The notes beneath the pieces are model-generated. The model saw only the letters and a program-made list of their open reading frames with translations, did not search any database and was not told the DNA's origin. Shown here one piece after another: positions 1,975-60,614 of a stretch of 64,000 bases of DNA. Position numbers and translations under genes: made by a program. This stretch comes from an uncultured Bacillota bacterium (GTDB lineage Bacteria; Bacillota_I; Bacilli_A; RF39; UBA660). The DNA is taken from assembly GCA_948466255.1 (NCBI GenBank), contig CAOJZV010000003.1, positions 9,722-73,721 on the forward strand, in the 5' to 3' direction. Positions within the stretch are counted from its first letter, which is position 1. Every line of letters starts with the position of its first letter.

Positions 1975-3129
1975 ATGTATAGAAATACTTATGCTTTAAT
2001 AGACCTAGATACTTTAAAAAATAATGTAAAGGATATTGTTAGTAAATATCCTTATAAGTATTATATTGGGGTTGTAAAGGCCAATGCTTATGGTCATGGT
2101 GACTACGTTGTCAATAGCTTAATTGAAGGTGGGATTAACTATTTAGCGGCTGCTACTTTAGAGGAATGCTTAAGTTTGCGCGAAAGAAACAATTCTATCC
2201 CTATTTTGTGTTTAGAGCCTATTGCTCATAAGTATCTAAATCTATGTGAATCTAATAATATTACAATTACAATTCCTGATATGGATTATTTTAAAGGGCT
2301 TGATAAAAATTTAAATTTAAAAGCTCATATTAAAATTGATAGCGGAATGAACCGTTTAGGTTTTAAAGATAAAAATGAAGTTAAAAATGTTGTAGATGAA
2401 CTTAATGAAAGTTCTATTGCTTTAGAAGGAATTTATACTCATTTTGCAACTAGTGGAATGTGGGATAAACATTGGGATGATGGGCTTAATAATTTTAAAG
2501 AAATTACTAGTTTAATCGATTTATCTAAAATACCTATTGTCCATTTAGGTAGGTCTTTAACTTTAGTTCAACACAAAATGCCTGATTTTGTTAATGGAGT
2601 TAGACCTGGAATTATTTTATATGGTTTTGCTCAAAAAATTAATGAACCTACTGGGCTTAGACTTATTAAAAGAAATCATTATCTTAAGAAAAATGGAATT
2701 AGTCCTGTTAGTTTAAATAATGATTTAAATTTAAAATCAGCTTTTAGTTTACATTCTGAAATTATGTGTATTAAAGATGTTAAAGCTGGGGAGTATATCA
2801 GTTATGGAGCTAAATACGTAGCTGATGAAGATATTAAAATCGGAGTTATGCCTATTGGATATGCTGACGGTCTTTCAAAGAACAATGAAGGTCTTATGGT
2901 TAAAATTAATAATAAAGAATATCCAATTGTGGGAGATATCTGTATGGATATGACAATGATTAAAATTGATAATTCGGTTAAACTTCATGATGAGGTTGTA
3001 ATTTATGATGATATTTCTAAAAGAGCTAAAGAACTTGGAGTTAGTGCTTATCAGTTATTAACTTCTGTTACTAACAGAGTTCCTAGAGTATATAAAAAGG
3101 AAGATAAATTTACAGAAATTAAATACTAG
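1975..3129 (+). CDS. alr: Alanine racemase family PLP-dependent racemase
   Basis: VVKANAYGHG (PLP Lys), DSGMNRLG, THFA, RPGIILYG, SYG (catalytic Tyr), CMD. Confidence 0.9.
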   Translation: MYRNTYALIDLDTLKNNVKDIVSKYPYKYYIGVVKANAYGHGDYVVNSLIEGGINYLAAATLEECLSLRERNNSIPILCLEPIAHKYLNLCESNNITITIPDMDYFKGLDKNLNLKAHIKIDSGMNRLGFKDKNEVKNVVDELNESSIALEGIYTHFATSGMWDKHWDDGLNNFKEITSLIDLSKIPIVHLGRSLTLVQHKMPDFVNGVRPGIILYGFAQKINEPTGLRLIKRNHYLKKNGISPVSLNNDLNLKSAFSLHSEIMCIKDVKAGEYISYGAKYVADEDIKIGVMPIGYADGLSKNNEGLMVKINNKEYPIVGDICMDMTMIKIDNSVKLHDEVVIYDDISKRAKELGVSAYQLLTSVTNRVPRVYKKEDKFTEIKY

Positions 3130-40622: not shown

Positions 40623-40651
40623 ATTTTTCTTCCTTTCTTTTTGTTTTTTTG

Positions 40652-40723
40652 CACCTCGTATATATCCTACGAGATTTATATAGTGATTTCCTTTTTATTT
40701 TTGAAATTTTTGTATATTTTTTT
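40652..40723 (-). repeat. Dispersed element copy 3; left copy of a 72-bp exact direct repeat
   Basis: cacctcgtatatatcctacgagatttatatagtgatttcc...gtatattttttt, identical to 41321-41392. Confidence 0.95.
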
Positions 40724-40843
40724 GATTTTATCTATATTATATAAGTGATACTGCTATTTGACTTGACAGTTATTTTGTAGTATCATTTGTTATAGATGTG
40801 GATGAACTGTTACTACCTTCCGCTTTGGGCGTATAACAAAGGA

Positions 40844-41315
40844 TCAAGTTTTACTTGAAGCATGAGTTAAAGTAGTAGGTTCTTTCCACATTGTTTTTAT
40901 TTTTAAATATTTACTTTTTTGTGGAACAATTTCTACTACATAAGTCGTAGTATTATTTAATATTTTTATATATCTTATGGAAACACCTTCTTTATTGGGT
41001 GTTCCTTTTATTATGTAATCTGGTTTATTTATTATTTTAGGAATATTTTTAATATCTTCTTTTGTGATAGGAATTTGTTTTTTTGAATTTTCTACTTTTT
41101 TATTACCATGATTATTTAACATATGACGAATATCATTATCTAGTAAAATATGTATTCTATTATCTACATTTATGCCTAATAATAAATGTTTTTTTTGATG
41201 CTTTAATATTGATTTTACCTAAATAATTTTTATTTTTTGAGTTTTTGTTTAAAATGGCATTTTCGATTTGTTTTTCTAAATTTAAAAATAAAATATTATC
41301 TTTGTGTTGGTTCAT
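40844..41315 (-). pseudogene. Frameshifted PBECR-like (Barnase/EndoU/ColE5/RelE-superfamily) nuclease
   Basis: ATG at 41315 with GAGGTG RBS. Removing one base from the T8 run (41189-41196) joins it to ORF 40844-41122, giving about 156 aa with IRHMLNNHG..PITKEDIKNIPKIINKPD..YIK..YVVE..KTMWK. Confidence 0.65.
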
Positions 41316-41320
41316 TTTAT

Positions 41321-41392
41321 CACCTCGTATATATCCTACGAGATTTATATAGTGATTTCCTTTTTATTTTTGAAATTTTTGTATATTTTTTT
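41321..41392 (-). repeat. Dispersed element copy 4; right copy of the 72-bp direct repeat
   Basis: Identical to 40652-40723; its GAGGTG arm serves as the RBS of the PBECR-like gene. Confidence 0.95.
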
Positions 41393-41425
41393 TATTTTTT
41401 TTAAAACTATTATTAGGTGAACTAT

Positions 41426-51883: not shown

Positions 51884-52869
51884 TATATCGCCTCCAAACT
51901 AACGGCATGAGCAATAGCCGGAATTGTTAATTTTTGATTAGCAAGTGACTGACTCATTAAGGCTCCTGTTGCTACTAATAAAACTTTTTTAAGTTTTCCT
52001 TTTTTCATTTGATCAAAAATATATCCATAAGTAACTAAAGGGGCACATACTGGACCGCTTGCTCCTGCATATACTGGTTGCCTTTTTATATCATAAAGCA
52101 TAACTCCTGTATCATCATAATTTTTTAAAGTAATTCCATATTCTGTCTGCATATATTCTTTTAATATTTCTTTTCCATAAATTCCTAAATCTCCTGTTAA
52201 AACCAAATCATAATAATCAATAGTTCTTCCTGTATCATTTAAATGTTTATGAATAGTATCAGCTGCTGCAGGCGCCATAACTGCTCCCATATTAAATACA
52301 TCATTAATCATAGAATCGGTTACTGTTCCTAAAGTCGCACTTTCTATTTTAATATCAGATTTTTTAGAGGAAAGTAAAGCTACTGCACTTCCAGTTGAAG
52401 TAAATGTTGTTGTTTTGGGTTTTGGTCCTCCATATTCCACTGGATATCTAAATTGTTTTTCAGCTCCATTATTATGTGATGAAGTTGCACATAATACTCT
52501 ACCGGCTTGCTTACTTTCTATCATATTTGCCCCAACGCAAAGACCTAAAGTACTAGTCGCGCAGGCAGCATATACACCGATATAAGAAGCTGGCATATTA
52601 GTTCCGGCATAGTTAGAAGCGGTTATTTGATTTAATAAGTCTCCGGCTATAAATACATCAATATCGTATCTTGTCATTCCTATTTTATTAAGTAAGATAT
52701 CAGTGGCATCACTTATTGATTTACTTTCTGCTTGCTCCCATGTTTTACATTCAAAATATAAGTCTTCATAACTGTGATCGAAATATTTTGAAAGTGGTCC
52801 TTTTCCTTCATAAGGCCCGGTTACGGTTGCAGTTTCGTTTATGTAAACGTTATTGTATTTAAATGTCAT
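51883..52869 (-). CDS. spoVAD: Stage V sporulation protein AD
   Basis: GPYEGKGPL, AGDLLNQI, ACAT, AEKQFRYP.EYG, MGAVMAPAA, TGDLG. Confidence 0.95.
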   Translation of the reverse strand: MTFKYNNVYINETATVTGPYEGKGPLSKYFDHSYEDLYFECKTWEQAESKSISDATDILLNKIGMTRYDIDVFIAGDLLNQITASNYAGTNMPASYIGVYAACATSTLGLCVGANMIESKQAGRVLCATSSHNNGAEKQFRYPVEYGGPKPKTTTFTSTGSAVALLSSKKSDIKIESATLGTVTDSMINDVFNMGAVMAPAAADTIHKHLNDTGRTIDYYDLVLTGDLGIYGKEILKEYMQTEYGITLKNYDDTGVMLYDIKRQPVYAGASGPVCAPLVTYGYIFDQMKKGKLKKVLLVATGALMSQSLANQKLTIPAIAHAVSLEAI

Positions 52870-53309
52870 TAAATCACCCCTATCAAAAGTCTAATTAGAC
52901 TGAATGTCCAAGCACTGACGACTCCAAATATTACAACAGCTCCAGAAAGTTTCAACATATTTGCCCCTATTCCTGTAACTAATCCTTCTTTACGATATTC
53001 TAAAGCGGCACTCATTGTTGCATGAGCAAATCCTGTAATTGGAACTATAAGTCCGCATTTAGCAAAGTTTACCCATTTATCAAAGAATCCTAAACTTGTA
53101 AATAAACAACTAAAGAATATTAGTGTAACTAACATACAAACTGTTGCTTCTTTTGTTGGAATTGTTAAATAATAAGAATAAAAGTCAATAAGTCCTTGTC
53201 CAATTATTCCCATAATTCCTCCTGTTATGAAAGCAATTACAGCATTATAAAATACATCTTCTTTGGGTGTGTGTTTTGTAACCAAATTTTTATATTTTGT
53301 TTTTTCCAT
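52869..53309 (-). CDS. spoVAC: Stage V sporulation protein AC
   Basis: AFITGG..G..GQ, G.IVPITGFA....SAALEYRKEG...GIG. Confidence 0.92.
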   Translation of the reverse strand: MEKTKYKNLVTKHTPKEDVFYNAVIAFITGGIMGIIGQGLIDFYSYYLTIPTKEATVCMLVTLIFFSCLFTSLGFFDKWVNFAKCGLIVPITGFAHATMSAALEYRKEGLVTGIGANMLKLSGAVVIFGVVSAWTFSLIRLLIGVI

Positions 53310-53361
53310 AAACTTCCTCCTTCAAAGTTATTATGGAAAATTTTTTTATTTTTATACAAAT

Positions 53362-53383
53362 AAAAACTACGAATAATCGTAGT
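53362..53383. repeat. 22-bp exact direct repeat, left copy (terminator hairpin)
   Basis: aaaaactacgaataatcgtagt, identical to 55171-55192. Confidence 0.9.
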
Positions 53384-53385
53384 CT

Positions 53386-53559
53386 CTACATTTTGTTTTT
53401 TTCTTTTGGTGAAACAAAATATACTTTTCTCTTTCCTTCTAAAACTTCTTTAGGCCATTTAATTGGAATTACATCTTTTAAAGCTTCTTCCATAGTGATT
53501 TCAGGTCTAGGCTTTTCAAAAAAACCTTTTGGAAAACTTGGCTTTTTTTTCTTTTTCAT
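53386..53559 (-). CDS. Small basic hypothetical protein (57 aa, missing from the ORF track)
   Basis: GAGGTG RBS; MKKKKKPSFPKGFFEKPRPEITMEEALKDVIPIKWPKEVLEGKRKVYFVSPKEKNKM*. Confidence 0.7.
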   Translation of the reverse strand: MKKKKKPSFPKGFFEKPRPEITMEEALKDVIPIKWPKEVLEGKRKVYFVSPKEKNKM

Positions 53560-53593
53560 TTTCCCACCTCGTTTTTCTTATTAATTATAATTT

Positions 53594-55090
53594 TTATTTT
53601 TTTGTAATATATTTTTGATTTCTTGCATTAGGATATCTTTTATTTGTATATTCCAAAATATTATCATCCACCAATGGTTTGATTATATTACGCGCTACAT
53701 ATGGCTTAGAAGTCATACCAATAAATTCTCTTATTTCTGCCGCTGTTTTTGGTGTTTGACAAAAGGTTTTTATTTTAGAAACTAAATCAGCACTAGTATC
53801 ATCTTGTGTATCACTTTGTGTATCACTTTGTGTACTAGTATTTTCATCTAAAAATTCATTTTTCAAAATAACCTTAAATGAGCCACGTTCCTCAATAAAT
53901 TCTGGTTCAGGCAAATTCATTTTTCTCATTTCTCTTCGCATTGTAGGAATTCCAGAATGGCGATTTTCAATTACAGATCCTTTTTCTTCTAATATTCTTA
54001 CAATTGTAGCATTACGAGATTCCATAATTGTATCTGTTCCTAATTTTTCTAGTTTATTAATTCCATATAATGCACCCGGATTTTGAATTACAATTCTATC
54101 ATCATACATATAAACTTGTATATAAGCATTTTCGGTTTGTACACTATAATCTCTATGGATTAGGGCATTTGCTACTGCCTCTCTCAATGCTAGCATTGGA
54201 TATTCTGGAACGTTTTTTCTTTTACCAGTAACTGAATCTATTATAACCCTATTTTTCATATTCTTTCTTAGAAAATTAAGTGTTCCTTCTAACATTTGTT
54301 CAATTGTACCTTCAATACGTTTATTATCATCAAATCGTTGTCCCATTTCTCCTATTTCACCCAATTCAGTCCCAGGAATTACTGCACATGCAACAAATAG
54401 TTGTGGATAATAAGCTTGTGGGTATTCACCAAATATCATAGTACCCGCCAATGTAGGATAAACAGTTCCATCACTGTTATCCGTTATGCCTGACAACTTT
54501 AATATTTTTTCATTATTACTTTTAGCAAAATTAGGTTTATCTGTTTTAACAATATCAACATAATTTTCTAATTCTTCTGATACCAAATCGCCCAAAGAAG
54601 ATCGTTTATTAGGACGCAAATCTTCTCTTATACCATCATTATAACTTTGTAAAGCATAAATTTCATAATCTGTCATCACCTCATCACTATCACCAACTCG
54701 CGTATATGATCCTTTAGTCATTCCCTTCGGTTTATAATAACAAGGTTTTTGATTTTATAAAATTTCATCAACTTTAACAGCTAATATATTCTTCCCTTCA
54801 ACTTGTAAAGGTAAAATTTCGGGTCTAATTGATGGCATCATAGAATCACTACATAAAGAAGATATTTTCTTCTGTAGATCATTGATATCATATACATTTT
54901 CGACTGCAAATTGATTATTTTCATCAATTCCAAAAATAATTATACCACCATATTTATTAGCAAAACTAGAAATTGTATCATAACATTTTTTAGGAAATCC
55001 TTCTTTTGCTGACTTCGCTTCTATTGTATTAGTTTCCATATTAAATTTTTTTAATGTTTGAATTGCAGATAATACTTCTTCTTTTTGCAT
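53594..55090 (-). pseudogene. Schlafen-like AlbA_2 + HATPase (RecG-C-like) + wHTH protein split by one in-frame TAA
   Basis: EAKSA...TISSFAN..GGIIIFGIDE; REAVANALIHRDY, NPG; the TAA at 54755-54757 is in frame with both halves. Confidence 0.8.
53796..53834. repeat. 12-bp tandem repeat (about 3 units) encoding a TQSD linker
   Basis: gtatcatcttgt-gtatcactttgt-gtatcactttgt-gta. Confidence 0.8.
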
Positions 55091-55170
55091 AATAATCAAC
55101 TCCTTATAATTATTATACCAAAATTTAAATGTTTTTACTTGTCGAAAAATAAATTTTACAAACTTTATTA

Positions 55171-55192
55171 AAAAACTACGAATAATCGTAGT
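55171..55192. repeat. 22-bp exact direct repeat, right copy (sodA terminator)
   Basis: Identical to 53362-53383; overlaps the last base of the sodA stop. Confidence 0.9.
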
Positions 55193-55800
55193 TAGCCAAC
55201 TATGTTTTCATATAATTTGTTTGCATAATCAAAATTAGCTTTATTCCAAAAATTTTCTATATAACTGTTTCGATCATTTTTATATTGTAAATAATAAGCA
55301 TGCTCCCATAAATCTATAGTAAACAAAGGTATTAAGTTATAAGAAAGTGGTGTTTCTTGATTGATCATATTTACAATTGTTAAATCTCCCCTATTATTAC
55401 TTACTAAAAATGTATAGCCTGAACCTACTAAATGTTTAGCTCTATTTATAAAATCTTTTCTAAAATTTTCAAAATTTCCATATTGAACATTTATTTTATT
55501 AAGTAAATTTCCTCTTGGATTACTTTTTTTGTTATTCATACTATTCCAATATAAGTTATGATTAAGTACTCCACCAGTATTATATAAAATATCTCCTCTA
55601 TCAGCTAAAGGAAATTCTTCTATATGACTAGGTATTTCATCTAATGAAAACCTGCCATCATAATTGCTTCTAGCTAAAGCTTCATTTAAGTTATTTACAT
55701 ATCCTCTATGATGTTTATTATAATGAATATCAACTATTTCTTCATTGATATCTGGTTCTAAAACATCATAAGGATATGGTAAATTCATTAATTCATACAT
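55192..55800 (-). CDS. sodA: Fe/Mn superoxide dismutase
   Basis: LPYPYDVLEP, HYNKHH, NHNLYW, DLWEHAYY. Confidence 0.9.
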   Translation of the reverse strand: MYELMNLPYPYDVLEPDINEEIVDIHYNKHHRGYVNNLNEALARSNYDGRFSLDEIPSHIEEFPLADRGDILYNTGGVLNHNLYWNSMNNKKSNPRGNLLNKINVQYGNFENFRKDFINRAKHLVGSGYTFLVSNNRGDLTIVNMINQETPLSYNLIPLFTIDLWEHAYYLQYKNDRNSYIENFWNKANFDYANKLYENIVG

Positions 55801-59468: not shown

Positions 59469-60527
59469 TTATAAAATTTCCCATTCTCCGTTTCTTTTTC
59501 CATTTTTTCTAATTATTAATCCTTTTTCTTGCATTTCAATCATTCTAGTTTTTACAGTTCTTAATGATTTACCAATAATTTGAGCAATTTCTTCTTGCTT
59601 AGTAGTTGAATTTTCTCTAATTACATTTAATATAGCTTGTTCTTCTAAAGTGCAAAAATTGCATTTTGAGTCTTCGGTTGTTGCACTTTGAATATAATCA
59701 ACATGGGTATATCTATTTTTTAATTCATATTTAGCATCTGACAAAAGATTATAAAAGAACTTTTCTAAATGACTTATATCTTCAAAAATATTTTTTTCAA
59801 AATTTTTATAGTTAGCTCTAACTAATGAATTTCTAAAATACCAGGAATTATTAGCAAATATCTCATCATTAATATTAAATCCAAACGTTTTTAAATATTT
59901 AATAATAAAAACAGCTGTTGTTCTAGTATTACCCTCACAAAAAGGATGTACTTGCCATATATTTGAAGTAAATCGGCACAAATGTTTTATAGATTCATCA
60001 AGCGATAAATCTTTATATGAAAAATTTCTTTCTTGTTCAAAATCATATTCTAATGCTGGCATAATAGTTTCAAAAGAAGCATATATAACTGTATCTTTAT
60101 TTAAAATCCACTCATTCTTTGTAAAATTATAATCTCTTATAATACCTGCATGTTTATATACACCAGTAAATAATTTTTTATGAATACTTATTAGCTCAGT
60201 AGGATTAAAATTAAATGATTTATCACTTAATATTTCTGTGATCCTTACTGATACTTTATCTGCTTCTTCGCTATTTTCTTTTTCTTCTGATTTTCTATTA
60301 TCCAAAACTTTATAATAATTATTTATTTTTTCCTTAACTTCATCTAAATCAATCTTACCTTCAATATGTTCTTTAGCAGTTTCAACTAAATATTTTGAAG
60401 GTTTTAATCCATCTACTTCTTGAAGTCCTATAGCTGTTTCCCAGGCTTTGGTTTTTTCTACTTGAGTGGGGTCACCTTGTTTTATATATTCAGATAATTC
60501 TAAATTCCATTTTCCCTTTTTTTCCAT
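59469..60527 (-). CDS. Fic-domain protein with antitoxin-like N-terminus and C-terminal wHTH
   Basis: HPFCEGNTRT Fic motif; AWETAIGLQEVDGL; QEEIAQIIGKSLRTVK; AGGAGG RBS before MEKK. Confidence 0.9.
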   Translation of the reverse strand: MEKKGKWNLELSEYIKQGDPTQVEKTKAWETAIGLQEVDGLKPSKYLVETAKEHIEGKIDLDEVKEKINNYYKVLDNRKSEEKENSEEADKVSVRITEILSDKSFNFNPTELISIHKKLFTGVYKHAGIIRDYNFTKNEWILNKDTVIYASFETIMPALEYDFEQERNFSYKDLSLDESIKHLCRFTSNIWQVHPFCEGNTRTTAVFIIKYLKTFGFNINDEIFANNSWYFRNSLVRANYKNFEKNIFEDISHLEKFFYNLLSDAKYELKNRYTHVDYIQSATTEDSKCNFCTLEEQAILNVIRENSTTKQEEIAQIIGKSLRTVKTRMIEMQEKGLIIRKNGKRNGEWEIL

Positions 60528-60577: not shown

Positions 60578-60614
60578 TCAATTTCAAAGTGCAAAAATTG
60601 CACTTTGAAATTGA
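60578..60614. promoter_or_regulatory. Perfect 17-bp-arm palindrome upstream of the fic gene (candidate operator)
   Basis: tcaatttcaaagtgcaa-aaa-ttgcactttgaaattga. Confidence 0.7.

Follow-up and report, generated by a model that had tools for sequence, protein, structure and literature searches.

In the genome of an uncultured gut bacterium of the Bacilli (assembly G000; 1,054,624 bases, 68 % complete), a small accessory islet lies between sodA and spoVAC and is bracketed by two exact 22 nt copies of a predicted terminator. The islet belongs to a 64,000 nt stretch of DNA that was analysed as a whole (the window), to which positions without a prefix refer. It was considered probable that the islet was built in two layers at an intergenic site, with a flanking duplication of staggered-joining origin, and is not a single mobile cassette. 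Comparison with 65 genomes of the genus and with metagenome contigs, including those of a metagenome species here called R (contigs L048–L055), shows the order of events, in which a predicted toxin–antitoxin-like pair was inserted, its toxin-like gene was swapped for a Schlafen-type unit and the Schlafen gene was interrupted by a TAA codon.

Layout of the islet

All genes at the islet are on the minus strand, in the order sodA, Schlafen/AlbA_2 open reading frame (ORF), HATPase_c_4 ORF, 57 aa ORF and spoVAC–spoVAD–spoVAE–lepA. The relevant features are as follows.

55192–55800, minus strand: sodA, Fe/Mn superoxide dismutase of 202 aa (Pfam Sod_Fe_N and Sod_Fe_C), the conserved upstream neighbour
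55171–55192, minus strand: T1, the sodA-proximal copy of the predicted terminator, exact repeat, flagged in a consensus terminator scan (folding free energy −10.9 kcal/mol, z −3.8)
53586–55170, minus strand: Schlafen unit of 1585 bp, lineage-specific, standing where sister species have a PemK-like gene
54755–55090, minus strand: N-terminal ORF of 111 aa, Schlafen/AlbA_2 (PF04326, 58.9 bits), ending in the in-frame TAA 54755–54757
53594–54721, minus strand: C-terminal ORF of 375 aa, HATPase_c_4 (PF13749, 81.1 bits) with a winged helix–turn–helix (wHTH)-like tail, the rest of a broken gene of 502 codons
53386–53559, minus strand: 57 aa microprotein gene, with homologues 49–79 % identical and 18 invariant residues
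53362–53383, minus strand: T2, the spoVA-proximal copy of the predicted terminator, exact repeat (folding free energy −14.7 kcal/mol, z −5.6)
53326–53361, minus strand: spoVA promoter region, GTATA-N17-CATAATA, directly after T2
52869–53309, minus strand: spoVAC (PF03862), with orthologues in sister species, the conserved downstream neighbour

The GTATA-N17-CATAATA element was presumed to be the forespore sigma factor (F/G) promoter of the spoVA operon, which it resembles. A Pfam search of the islet returned AlbA_2, HATPase_c_4, Sod and SpoVAC only, with no transposase or integrase domain in 53384–55170, in agreement with a first-pass annotation of this DNA that had reported no mobility gene in the insert. 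No Rfam family matched in the islet region, and no NCBIfam names were obtained for the islet proteins.

The empty site and the older layer

In six sister species (G007, G014, G019, G013, G017 and G011) the orthologues of sodA and spoVAC adjoin one another at a distance of 80–100 bp, with one hairpin and no cargo; the DNA search for such empty sites covered 40 relatives, and in other members of the genus sodA and spoVAC do not lie side by side. The insert is absent at the orthologous site of these species, and both of its flanking repeats align with the single empty-site copy. The hairpin of G007 (ACTACAAATAATTGTAGTTTTT, ACTACAA-ATAA-TTGTAGT) is orthologous to both islet copies and differs from them by a compensatory stem change, CGA/TCG to CAA/TTG. 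The first-pass annotation had asked for such cargo-free relatives and also for relatives with other cargo at the same site, which were found in R, G067 and G069 in the form of a PemK-like ORF.

The arrangement in these three species and in three further metagenome lineages is sodA, T1, a PemK-like ORF of 137–144 aa, an ORF of 54–58 aa, T2 and spoVAC. The PemK/MazF-like ORF covers the profile over its full length, with scores of 17.0 and 21.7 bits against a Pfam cut-off of 23.1. The 54–58 aa gene follows it at two different loci in six genomes and several metagenome lineages, and homologues of the G000 microprotein are always located downstream of a 137–144 aa PemK-like ORF (G067, G069, G012, G077, G009 and metagenome contigs). 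Because of the identity and the invariant residues of these homologues, the 57 aa ORF is, on sequence conservation, a real gene, and its product is probably an antitoxin-like partner of the PemK-like ORF that has been orphaned in G000. In G012, G077 and G009 the PemK-like pair also occupies an unrelated locus, where it ends in a different sequence and no repeat flanks it; the sodA hairpin thus does not travel with the pair. A cassette bringing its own copy of the hairpin was ruled out on this ground.

A tree of sodA and spoVAC placed G000, R, G067 and G069 in one clade (support 81/93), and G007, a species with the empty site, came out as their sister. Comparison of these loci dates the duplicated terminator to insertion of the predicted PemK-like pair in the ancestor of the four species, at ~10 % nucleotide divergence. 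In this first step, which precedes the split of the four species, a module of ~0.8 kb comprising the PemK/MazF-like ORF, its 57 aa partner and its own promoter entered the gap that separates the sodA terminator from the spoVA promoter, and ~43–46 nt of the target would have been duplicated, made up of the hairpin, its T-run and the first part of the spoVA promoter. Thereafter one copy would terminate sodA and the other the module, with drift in the 4 nt loop only.

The PemK-like gene of a sister species (L048:1428–1475) is preceded by a conserved promoter/5′ module, AAGAAGGAATTG...TATAAA...CGTATGATATATACGA, that is also repeated upstream of other small toxin genes of G000 (window 40646–40734 and 41315–41403; G000:C1:77977).

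The flanking repeat

The repeat, AAAAACTACGAATAATCGTAGT, is exact at 53362–53383 and 55171–55192. Nothing further was found in the window at up to three mismatches, the chance expectation for extra copies of the 22-mer was 0 (100 shuffles of the window), and a search of the whole assembly at up to two mismatches returned two copies only, both at the islet. A common terminator dispersed through the genome, the refutation foreseen in the first-pass annotation, was ruled out by this count. On the sense strand each copy reads ACTACGA-TTAT-TCGTAGT followed by TTTTT and begins 0–2 nt past a stop codon: the sodA stop TAA (55192–55194) shares one base with T1, and the stop TAG of the 57 aa ORF (53386–53388) lies 2 nt from T2. 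Both copies fold as hairpins of 7–8 bp with T-runs. These coordinates, stops and folds confirm the earlier description of a hairpin and T-run right after a stop codon on both sides, and the features expected of an intrinsic terminator are present, namely a GC-containing hairpin, a predicted U-run right after the gene and a structure kept in evolution.

Across the eight copies of the terminator in the four species, the stem and T-run are invariant except for one base in T1 of G069, and all other variation is in the 4 nt loop. T1 and T2 of G000 are identical to each other and to T1 of G067, and lie one loop base away from either copy in R; T2 follows the microprotein gene in all four species. 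The invariance of the stems and T-runs is attributed to one copy still ending sodA while the other ends the module. The exact 22-mer accordingly reads as selection on two working, though predicted, terminators, combined with chance or conversion in the 4 nt loop, and since the variation is confined to the loop of constrained terminators, exactness is no evidence of recency. The first-pass annotation had treated the exact repeat as the mark of an insertion, but a duplication that is ancestral to the four species is not a fresh scar.

The repeat was originally longer. In R it runs for 43 nt at 88 % identity, through TTTTTATTTGTATAAAA and into the apparent −35 part of the spoVA promoter, and the T1 region of R is 91 % identical to the T2 region of the window over 46 nt. 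The original duplication would have been ~43–46 nt and would have included the first ~17 nt (the −35 part) of the spoVA promoter region. The T1-side remainder of this longer repeat is overwritten in G000 by the Schlafen swap, leaving an exact repeat of 22 nt that is below the 30 bp used as a working threshold for duplication by Furuta, Abe & Kobayashi 2010 (PMC2853133).

Replacement by a Schlafen unit

Homology between G000 and R extends only over sodA and T1 (down to 55171) and over the microprotein gene, T2 and spoVAC (53301–53585); the 1585 bp between these stretches are Schlafen-specific. No remnant of a PemK-like gene was found in the G000 islet or in the assembly. The unit has its own TG-extended −10 element, TGGTATAAT, at 55112–55120. 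The comparison shows that the Schlafen unit came later and, as the aligned loci indicate, replaced the toxin-like gene in the G000 lineage only. In this second step, the lineage swapped the toxin-like gene and its promoter for a self-contained 1.6 kb Schlafen/AlbA_2–HATPase_c_4 unit.

The Schlafen gene is interrupted by TAA 54755–54757, with the N- and C-terminal ORFs in the same frame. The AlbA_2/Schlafen domain named in the first-pass annotation is present, as is HATPase_c_4, but the gene is split by a real stop codon in G000, while G017 has an intact 505 aa orthologue to which the C-terminal ORF is 67 % identical. About 16 contigs of the G000 species from at least 12 samples have the same islet structure and are 99.7–100 % identical, TAA included. 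The islet and the broken Schlafen gene are fixed in the sampled population. An assembly or sequencing error was ruled out by the recurrence of the TAA in at least 12 samples, and an alternative genetic code was ruled out because TAA, TAG and TGA interrupt Schlafen genes at different codons in different species. The third step was the gain of this TAA at codon ~115.

Independent disruptions of Schlafen genes (window 54755–54757; L016, L018 and L024, corresponding to G052, G009 and G003) all fall in the N-terminal AlbA_2 quarter, at codons ~54, 90, 117 and ~125, and the protein database contains many Schlafen-type forms of 375–417 aa with the C-terminal part alone. Loss of the N-terminal domain may be favoured while the ATPase–wHTH part is retained. 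The protein family is very large in uncultured Bacilli, with 2821 matches at E≤1e-20 and a nearest match of 76 %. Distant relatives occur on phage, satellite and plasmid records, and there were partial PADLOC matches to domains associated with pAgo; no near-identical donor was found on phages or plasmids, where the best protein identity was 40 %.

These results bear on the simplest reading, a single recent event in which a 1.8 kb cassette of Schlafen gene and microprotein targeted a terminator and left the exact 22 bp repeat as a fresh target-site duplication. The repeat is indeed exact and unique and brackets the whole insert, and an empty site exists in sister species. However, species with a PemK-like gene in place of the Schlafen gene also have the microprotein, T1 and T2, other Schlafen units occur without the microprotein, the identity of the repeats is explained by an invariant stem and T-run with a 4 nt loop, and the insert is fixed and bears a fixed nonsense mutation. 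A single event was considered very unlikely. The single cassette of the first-pass annotation gives way to an older pair of microprotein and duplicated terminator, normally accompanied by the PemK-like gene, in which the Schlafen unit is a later replacement.

The Schlafen unit at other loci

Orthologues of the Schlafen gene with 67–87 % protein identity were found in 11 of the 65 genus genomes, and the unit, with about the same length, occupies at least four loci in the genus besides sodA, without the microprotein. In G017, G052 and G062 it is located between ychF and a membrane-protein gene, and the direct repeats on either side of it measure 44, 72 and 39–49 nt, respectively. These repeats are composed of the ychF stop codon, a 26 nt spacer and the opening codons of the gene that follows; in G009 this sequence is present once. 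Repeats of this composition, 39–72 nt long, do not fit the terminator-specific process that had been suggested at first. Because the three loci are collinear and their cargo and flanks are equally diverged (77–85 %), the insertion at the ychF site is, as the alignments have it, ancestral to G017, G052 and G062.

At the sodA, ychF-3′ and ychF-5′ loci the unit starts ~17–25 nt before its promoter and ends ~12–15 nt past its stop codon. The similarity of these ends, set beside repeats that consist of local sequence, argues for a duplication made from the target at insertion and not for a flank carried along. Both ends of the unit contain TTATTTTTT(T)G (window 55140–55170 and 53586–53610; L009:1497–1520 and 3055–3093), with one copy beside a TTGACA box and the other forming the reverse complement of the conserved C-terminal codons ITKK-stop; this could be a weak inverted repeat or a mere AT-rich coincidence.

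The two ychF-site repeats DR1 and DR2 (L015–L017), ~1.6 kb apart, differ by 1 nt within a genome and by 6–11 nt between genomes, both repeats of a species having the substitutions peculiar to it. On this comparison the short repeats are being homogenized, a clear case of concerted evolution. That the repeats do recombine is consistent with a Campbell-type model, in which the module was once excised as a circle containing a local intergenic copy and re-entered an empty site by a RecA-dependent single crossover, with repeated cycles keeping the repeats alike. Arbitrary repeat lengths, from 22 to >107 nt and covering whole regulatory regions, would also fit, as would the presence of ComEC, and a similar life cycle has been proposed for restriction–modification (RM) units (PMC2853133). 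Against this, the model cannot account for how a repeat first arises at a new locus, and neither empty nor circular forms were found among the ~16 contigs of the species. Moreover, the Schlafen unit has much alike ends at loci that are unrelated, even though the repeats are local sequence. A homology of 22–45 nt is also short for a RecA crossover. Campbell-type re-entry was regarded as unlikely, while keeping some claim.

Other repeat-flanked modules and recombinases

The assembly was scanned for exact direct repeats of at least 18 nt spaced 0.25–8 kb apart. At least eight integrase-less modules in G000 are flanked by direct repeats, which supports the earlier suggestion that the pattern recurs beyond sodA; they include a tmk islet in the same window, a split Fic/DOC–wHTH gene, an AbiEi/AbiEii pair, a radical-SAM gene, an ABC-transporter trio, a 539 aa ORF and a 5 kb block. 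The repeat pairs around these seven are isolated and measure 23 to >107 nt, and the modules lack mobility genes. Most module repeats cover the terminator of the upstream gene and several also the −10 box of the downstream gene, but the repeats of the eight or more modules are unrelated local sequences, each module having its own. None of the modules has terminal inverted repeats (TIRs), the best end-to-end local score being 9 at the islet against 18 for a genuine IS30 element.

At G000:C10:6623–7715, the nonsense-split Fic/DOC–wHTH gene is located between two 36 nt copies of a terminator plus promoter; the same module and repeats are present in G067 (L072), and all four copies in the two species are identical although the flanks are only 83–84 % identical. 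At G000:C21:10684–12545, the AbiEi/AbiEii (type IV toxin–antitoxin) pair is located between direct repeats of at least 107 nt, made up of the final ~25 codons of the gene upstream, that gene's terminator and the TGTTATAAT promoter box. In the window, a 23 nt palindrome found upstream of a Fic gene recurs within its coding sequence, where it encodes SKCNFCTL twice (59647–59669 and 60586–60608).

The only true insertion sequence (IS) with a duplication of this kind is an IS30-family copy at G000:C6:24498–25572, which has a 304 aa HTH_38+rve transposase and ~18 nt TIRs and lies within a duplicated, perfect 25 nt palindromic terminator. One explanation considered was that an IS30/IS1630-type transposase acting in trans cut on either side of inverted repeats and duplicated them. 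IS1630 makes variable duplications of 19–26 bp (PMC2853133), and the 22 nt repeat of the islet, being a hairpin plus T-run, falls within that range of 19–26 bp inverted repeats. The explanation was nevertheless given very little probability. TIRs are absent from the ends of the islet and of every other repeat-flanked module, other repeats reach 72 to >107 nt, and similar duplications occur in G017, G052 and G062. The IS itself was found in G000 alone among the 65 genomes (E≤1e-40), whereas the duplication predates the four-species clade, and an element confined to G000 cannot explain duplications common to other species.

An integrase, Xer or integron integrase supplied in trans, recombining a non-autonomous module at an att-like core, would account for direct repeats of 20–60 nt around an insert, which are typical of att cores, and for a repeat that is a hairpin like attC sites. 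However, each repeat-flanked module has a different repeat of local sequence, the Schlafen unit has unrelated repeats at two sites, and the two flanking copies are identical, not hybrid. The assembly contains only two Xer-sized tyrosine recombinases, and no serine recombinase/resolvase family, integron integrase or attI was found in it, at 68 % completeness. This explanation was judged extremely improbable.

Origin of the duplication

For the origin of the duplication we infer that incoming DNA was joined at staggered positions on the two strands and that the gap was then filled, a step that would involve no element-encoded recombinase; afterwards the repeat copies could exchange sequence by gene conversion. 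Several points weigh against the reading of the islet as a whole. Both terminators are predictions, the PemK assignment is under the Pfam threshold as given above, and the node of the four-species clade is only moderately supported and rests on two genes. Duplication is not obligatory, as no repeat flanks the Schlafen unit at the lysozyme–ychF locus or the PemK-like pair at its second locus. No enzyme, intermediate, empty form or circular form was found, all of the ~16 species contigs being occupied. Ku, considered as a route of joining by non-homologous end joining, was not found and ComEC is intact, but at the present completeness of the assembly neither recombinases nor Ku are proven absent.

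Template switching is a further route to such a repeat. A replication fork stalled at the hairpin would allow the nascent strand to copy the module elsewhere and return upstream, so that the hairpin is copied twice. Hairpins do occur in the repeats at sodA, tmk, C1, C10 and C4b, and an inverted repeat in those of the ychF site, though hairpins are expected anyway in any 20–100 nt downstream of a gene. Under this model chance microhomology would fix the ends of a unit, but those of the Schlafen unit resemble one another from locus to locus, and there is no donor copy from which junction microhomology could be read. Template switching was considered quite unlikely; it and Campbell-type re-entry are the live rivals to staggered joining.

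A broader extension of staggered joining would be a host-encoded or structure-directed system in these Bacilli that moves promoter-to-stop units, joining them at staggered positions around intergenic inverted repeats to give duplications of 20–100 nt, with cycles of excision and re-entry keeping the duplicates alike. We consider this improbable and put it forward as speculation. If true, toxin and defence genes would share a general route that needs no integrase, and it would have produced the Schlafen unit, the PemK-like pair and the tmk, Fic and AbiE modules alike.

Relation to known elements and implications

The class to which the islet belongs has already been described as 'insertion with long target duplication', whose mechanism is unknown and for which a cycle of excision, amplification and re-entry has been proposed (PMC2853133). 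On its sequence features, the islet fits an old, two-layer, fixed case of this class. As in that class, a small selfish-type module without a mobility gene stands between direct repeats that align with one empty-site copy, and the repeat occurs nowhere else in the genome, varies in length between events and in many cases reaches into the 3′ end of the gene upstream. Unlike the RM cases, the cargo is a toxin–antitoxin-like pair plus a gene for a Schlafen-type ATPase, what survives of the repeat in exact form is 22 nt (<30 bp) with an ancestral length of ~43–46 nt, and the islet is old, layered by one cargo swap and fixed, in hosts that are reduced-genome uncultured gut Bacilli.

Other known systems share part of this organization. 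The islet resembles IS1630 of Mycoplasma fermentans and the IS30 family in a duplication of ~20–25 nt with a terminator-like inverted repeat, but it lacks a transposase (HTH_38 + rve) and TIRs, and the IS was not found in sister species that have the duplication. The minimal mobile elements of Neisseria are variable cassettes between conserved core genes, exchanged by homologous recombination via the flanking genes and without target duplication. Like them, the sodA–spoVA site is empty or holds one cargo or another, and cargo has been exchanged between conserved flanks; unlike them, the islet is bracketed by a duplicated terminator. Integron cassettes with attC hairpins are likewise small units without their own recombinase that end in a hairpin-forming site, but the hairpins of the islet copy the resident terminator instead of being cassette-specific attC sites, and the cargo has its own promoter.

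For genome scans, the islet is a caution that an exact flanking repeat is no proof of a recent event. It indicates that such duplications can outlast speciation, here because both copies become working regulatory signals, that the copies can evolve in concert and that a bracketed site can later swap its cargo. Most documented cases of insertion with long target duplication concern RM genes, the mechanism has been an open question since 2000, and the entry of toxin, defence and accessory genes into small genomes with few transposases or integrases is poorly understood. The islet extends the pattern to toxin–antitoxin-like and Schlafen-type genes in uncultured gut Bacilli.

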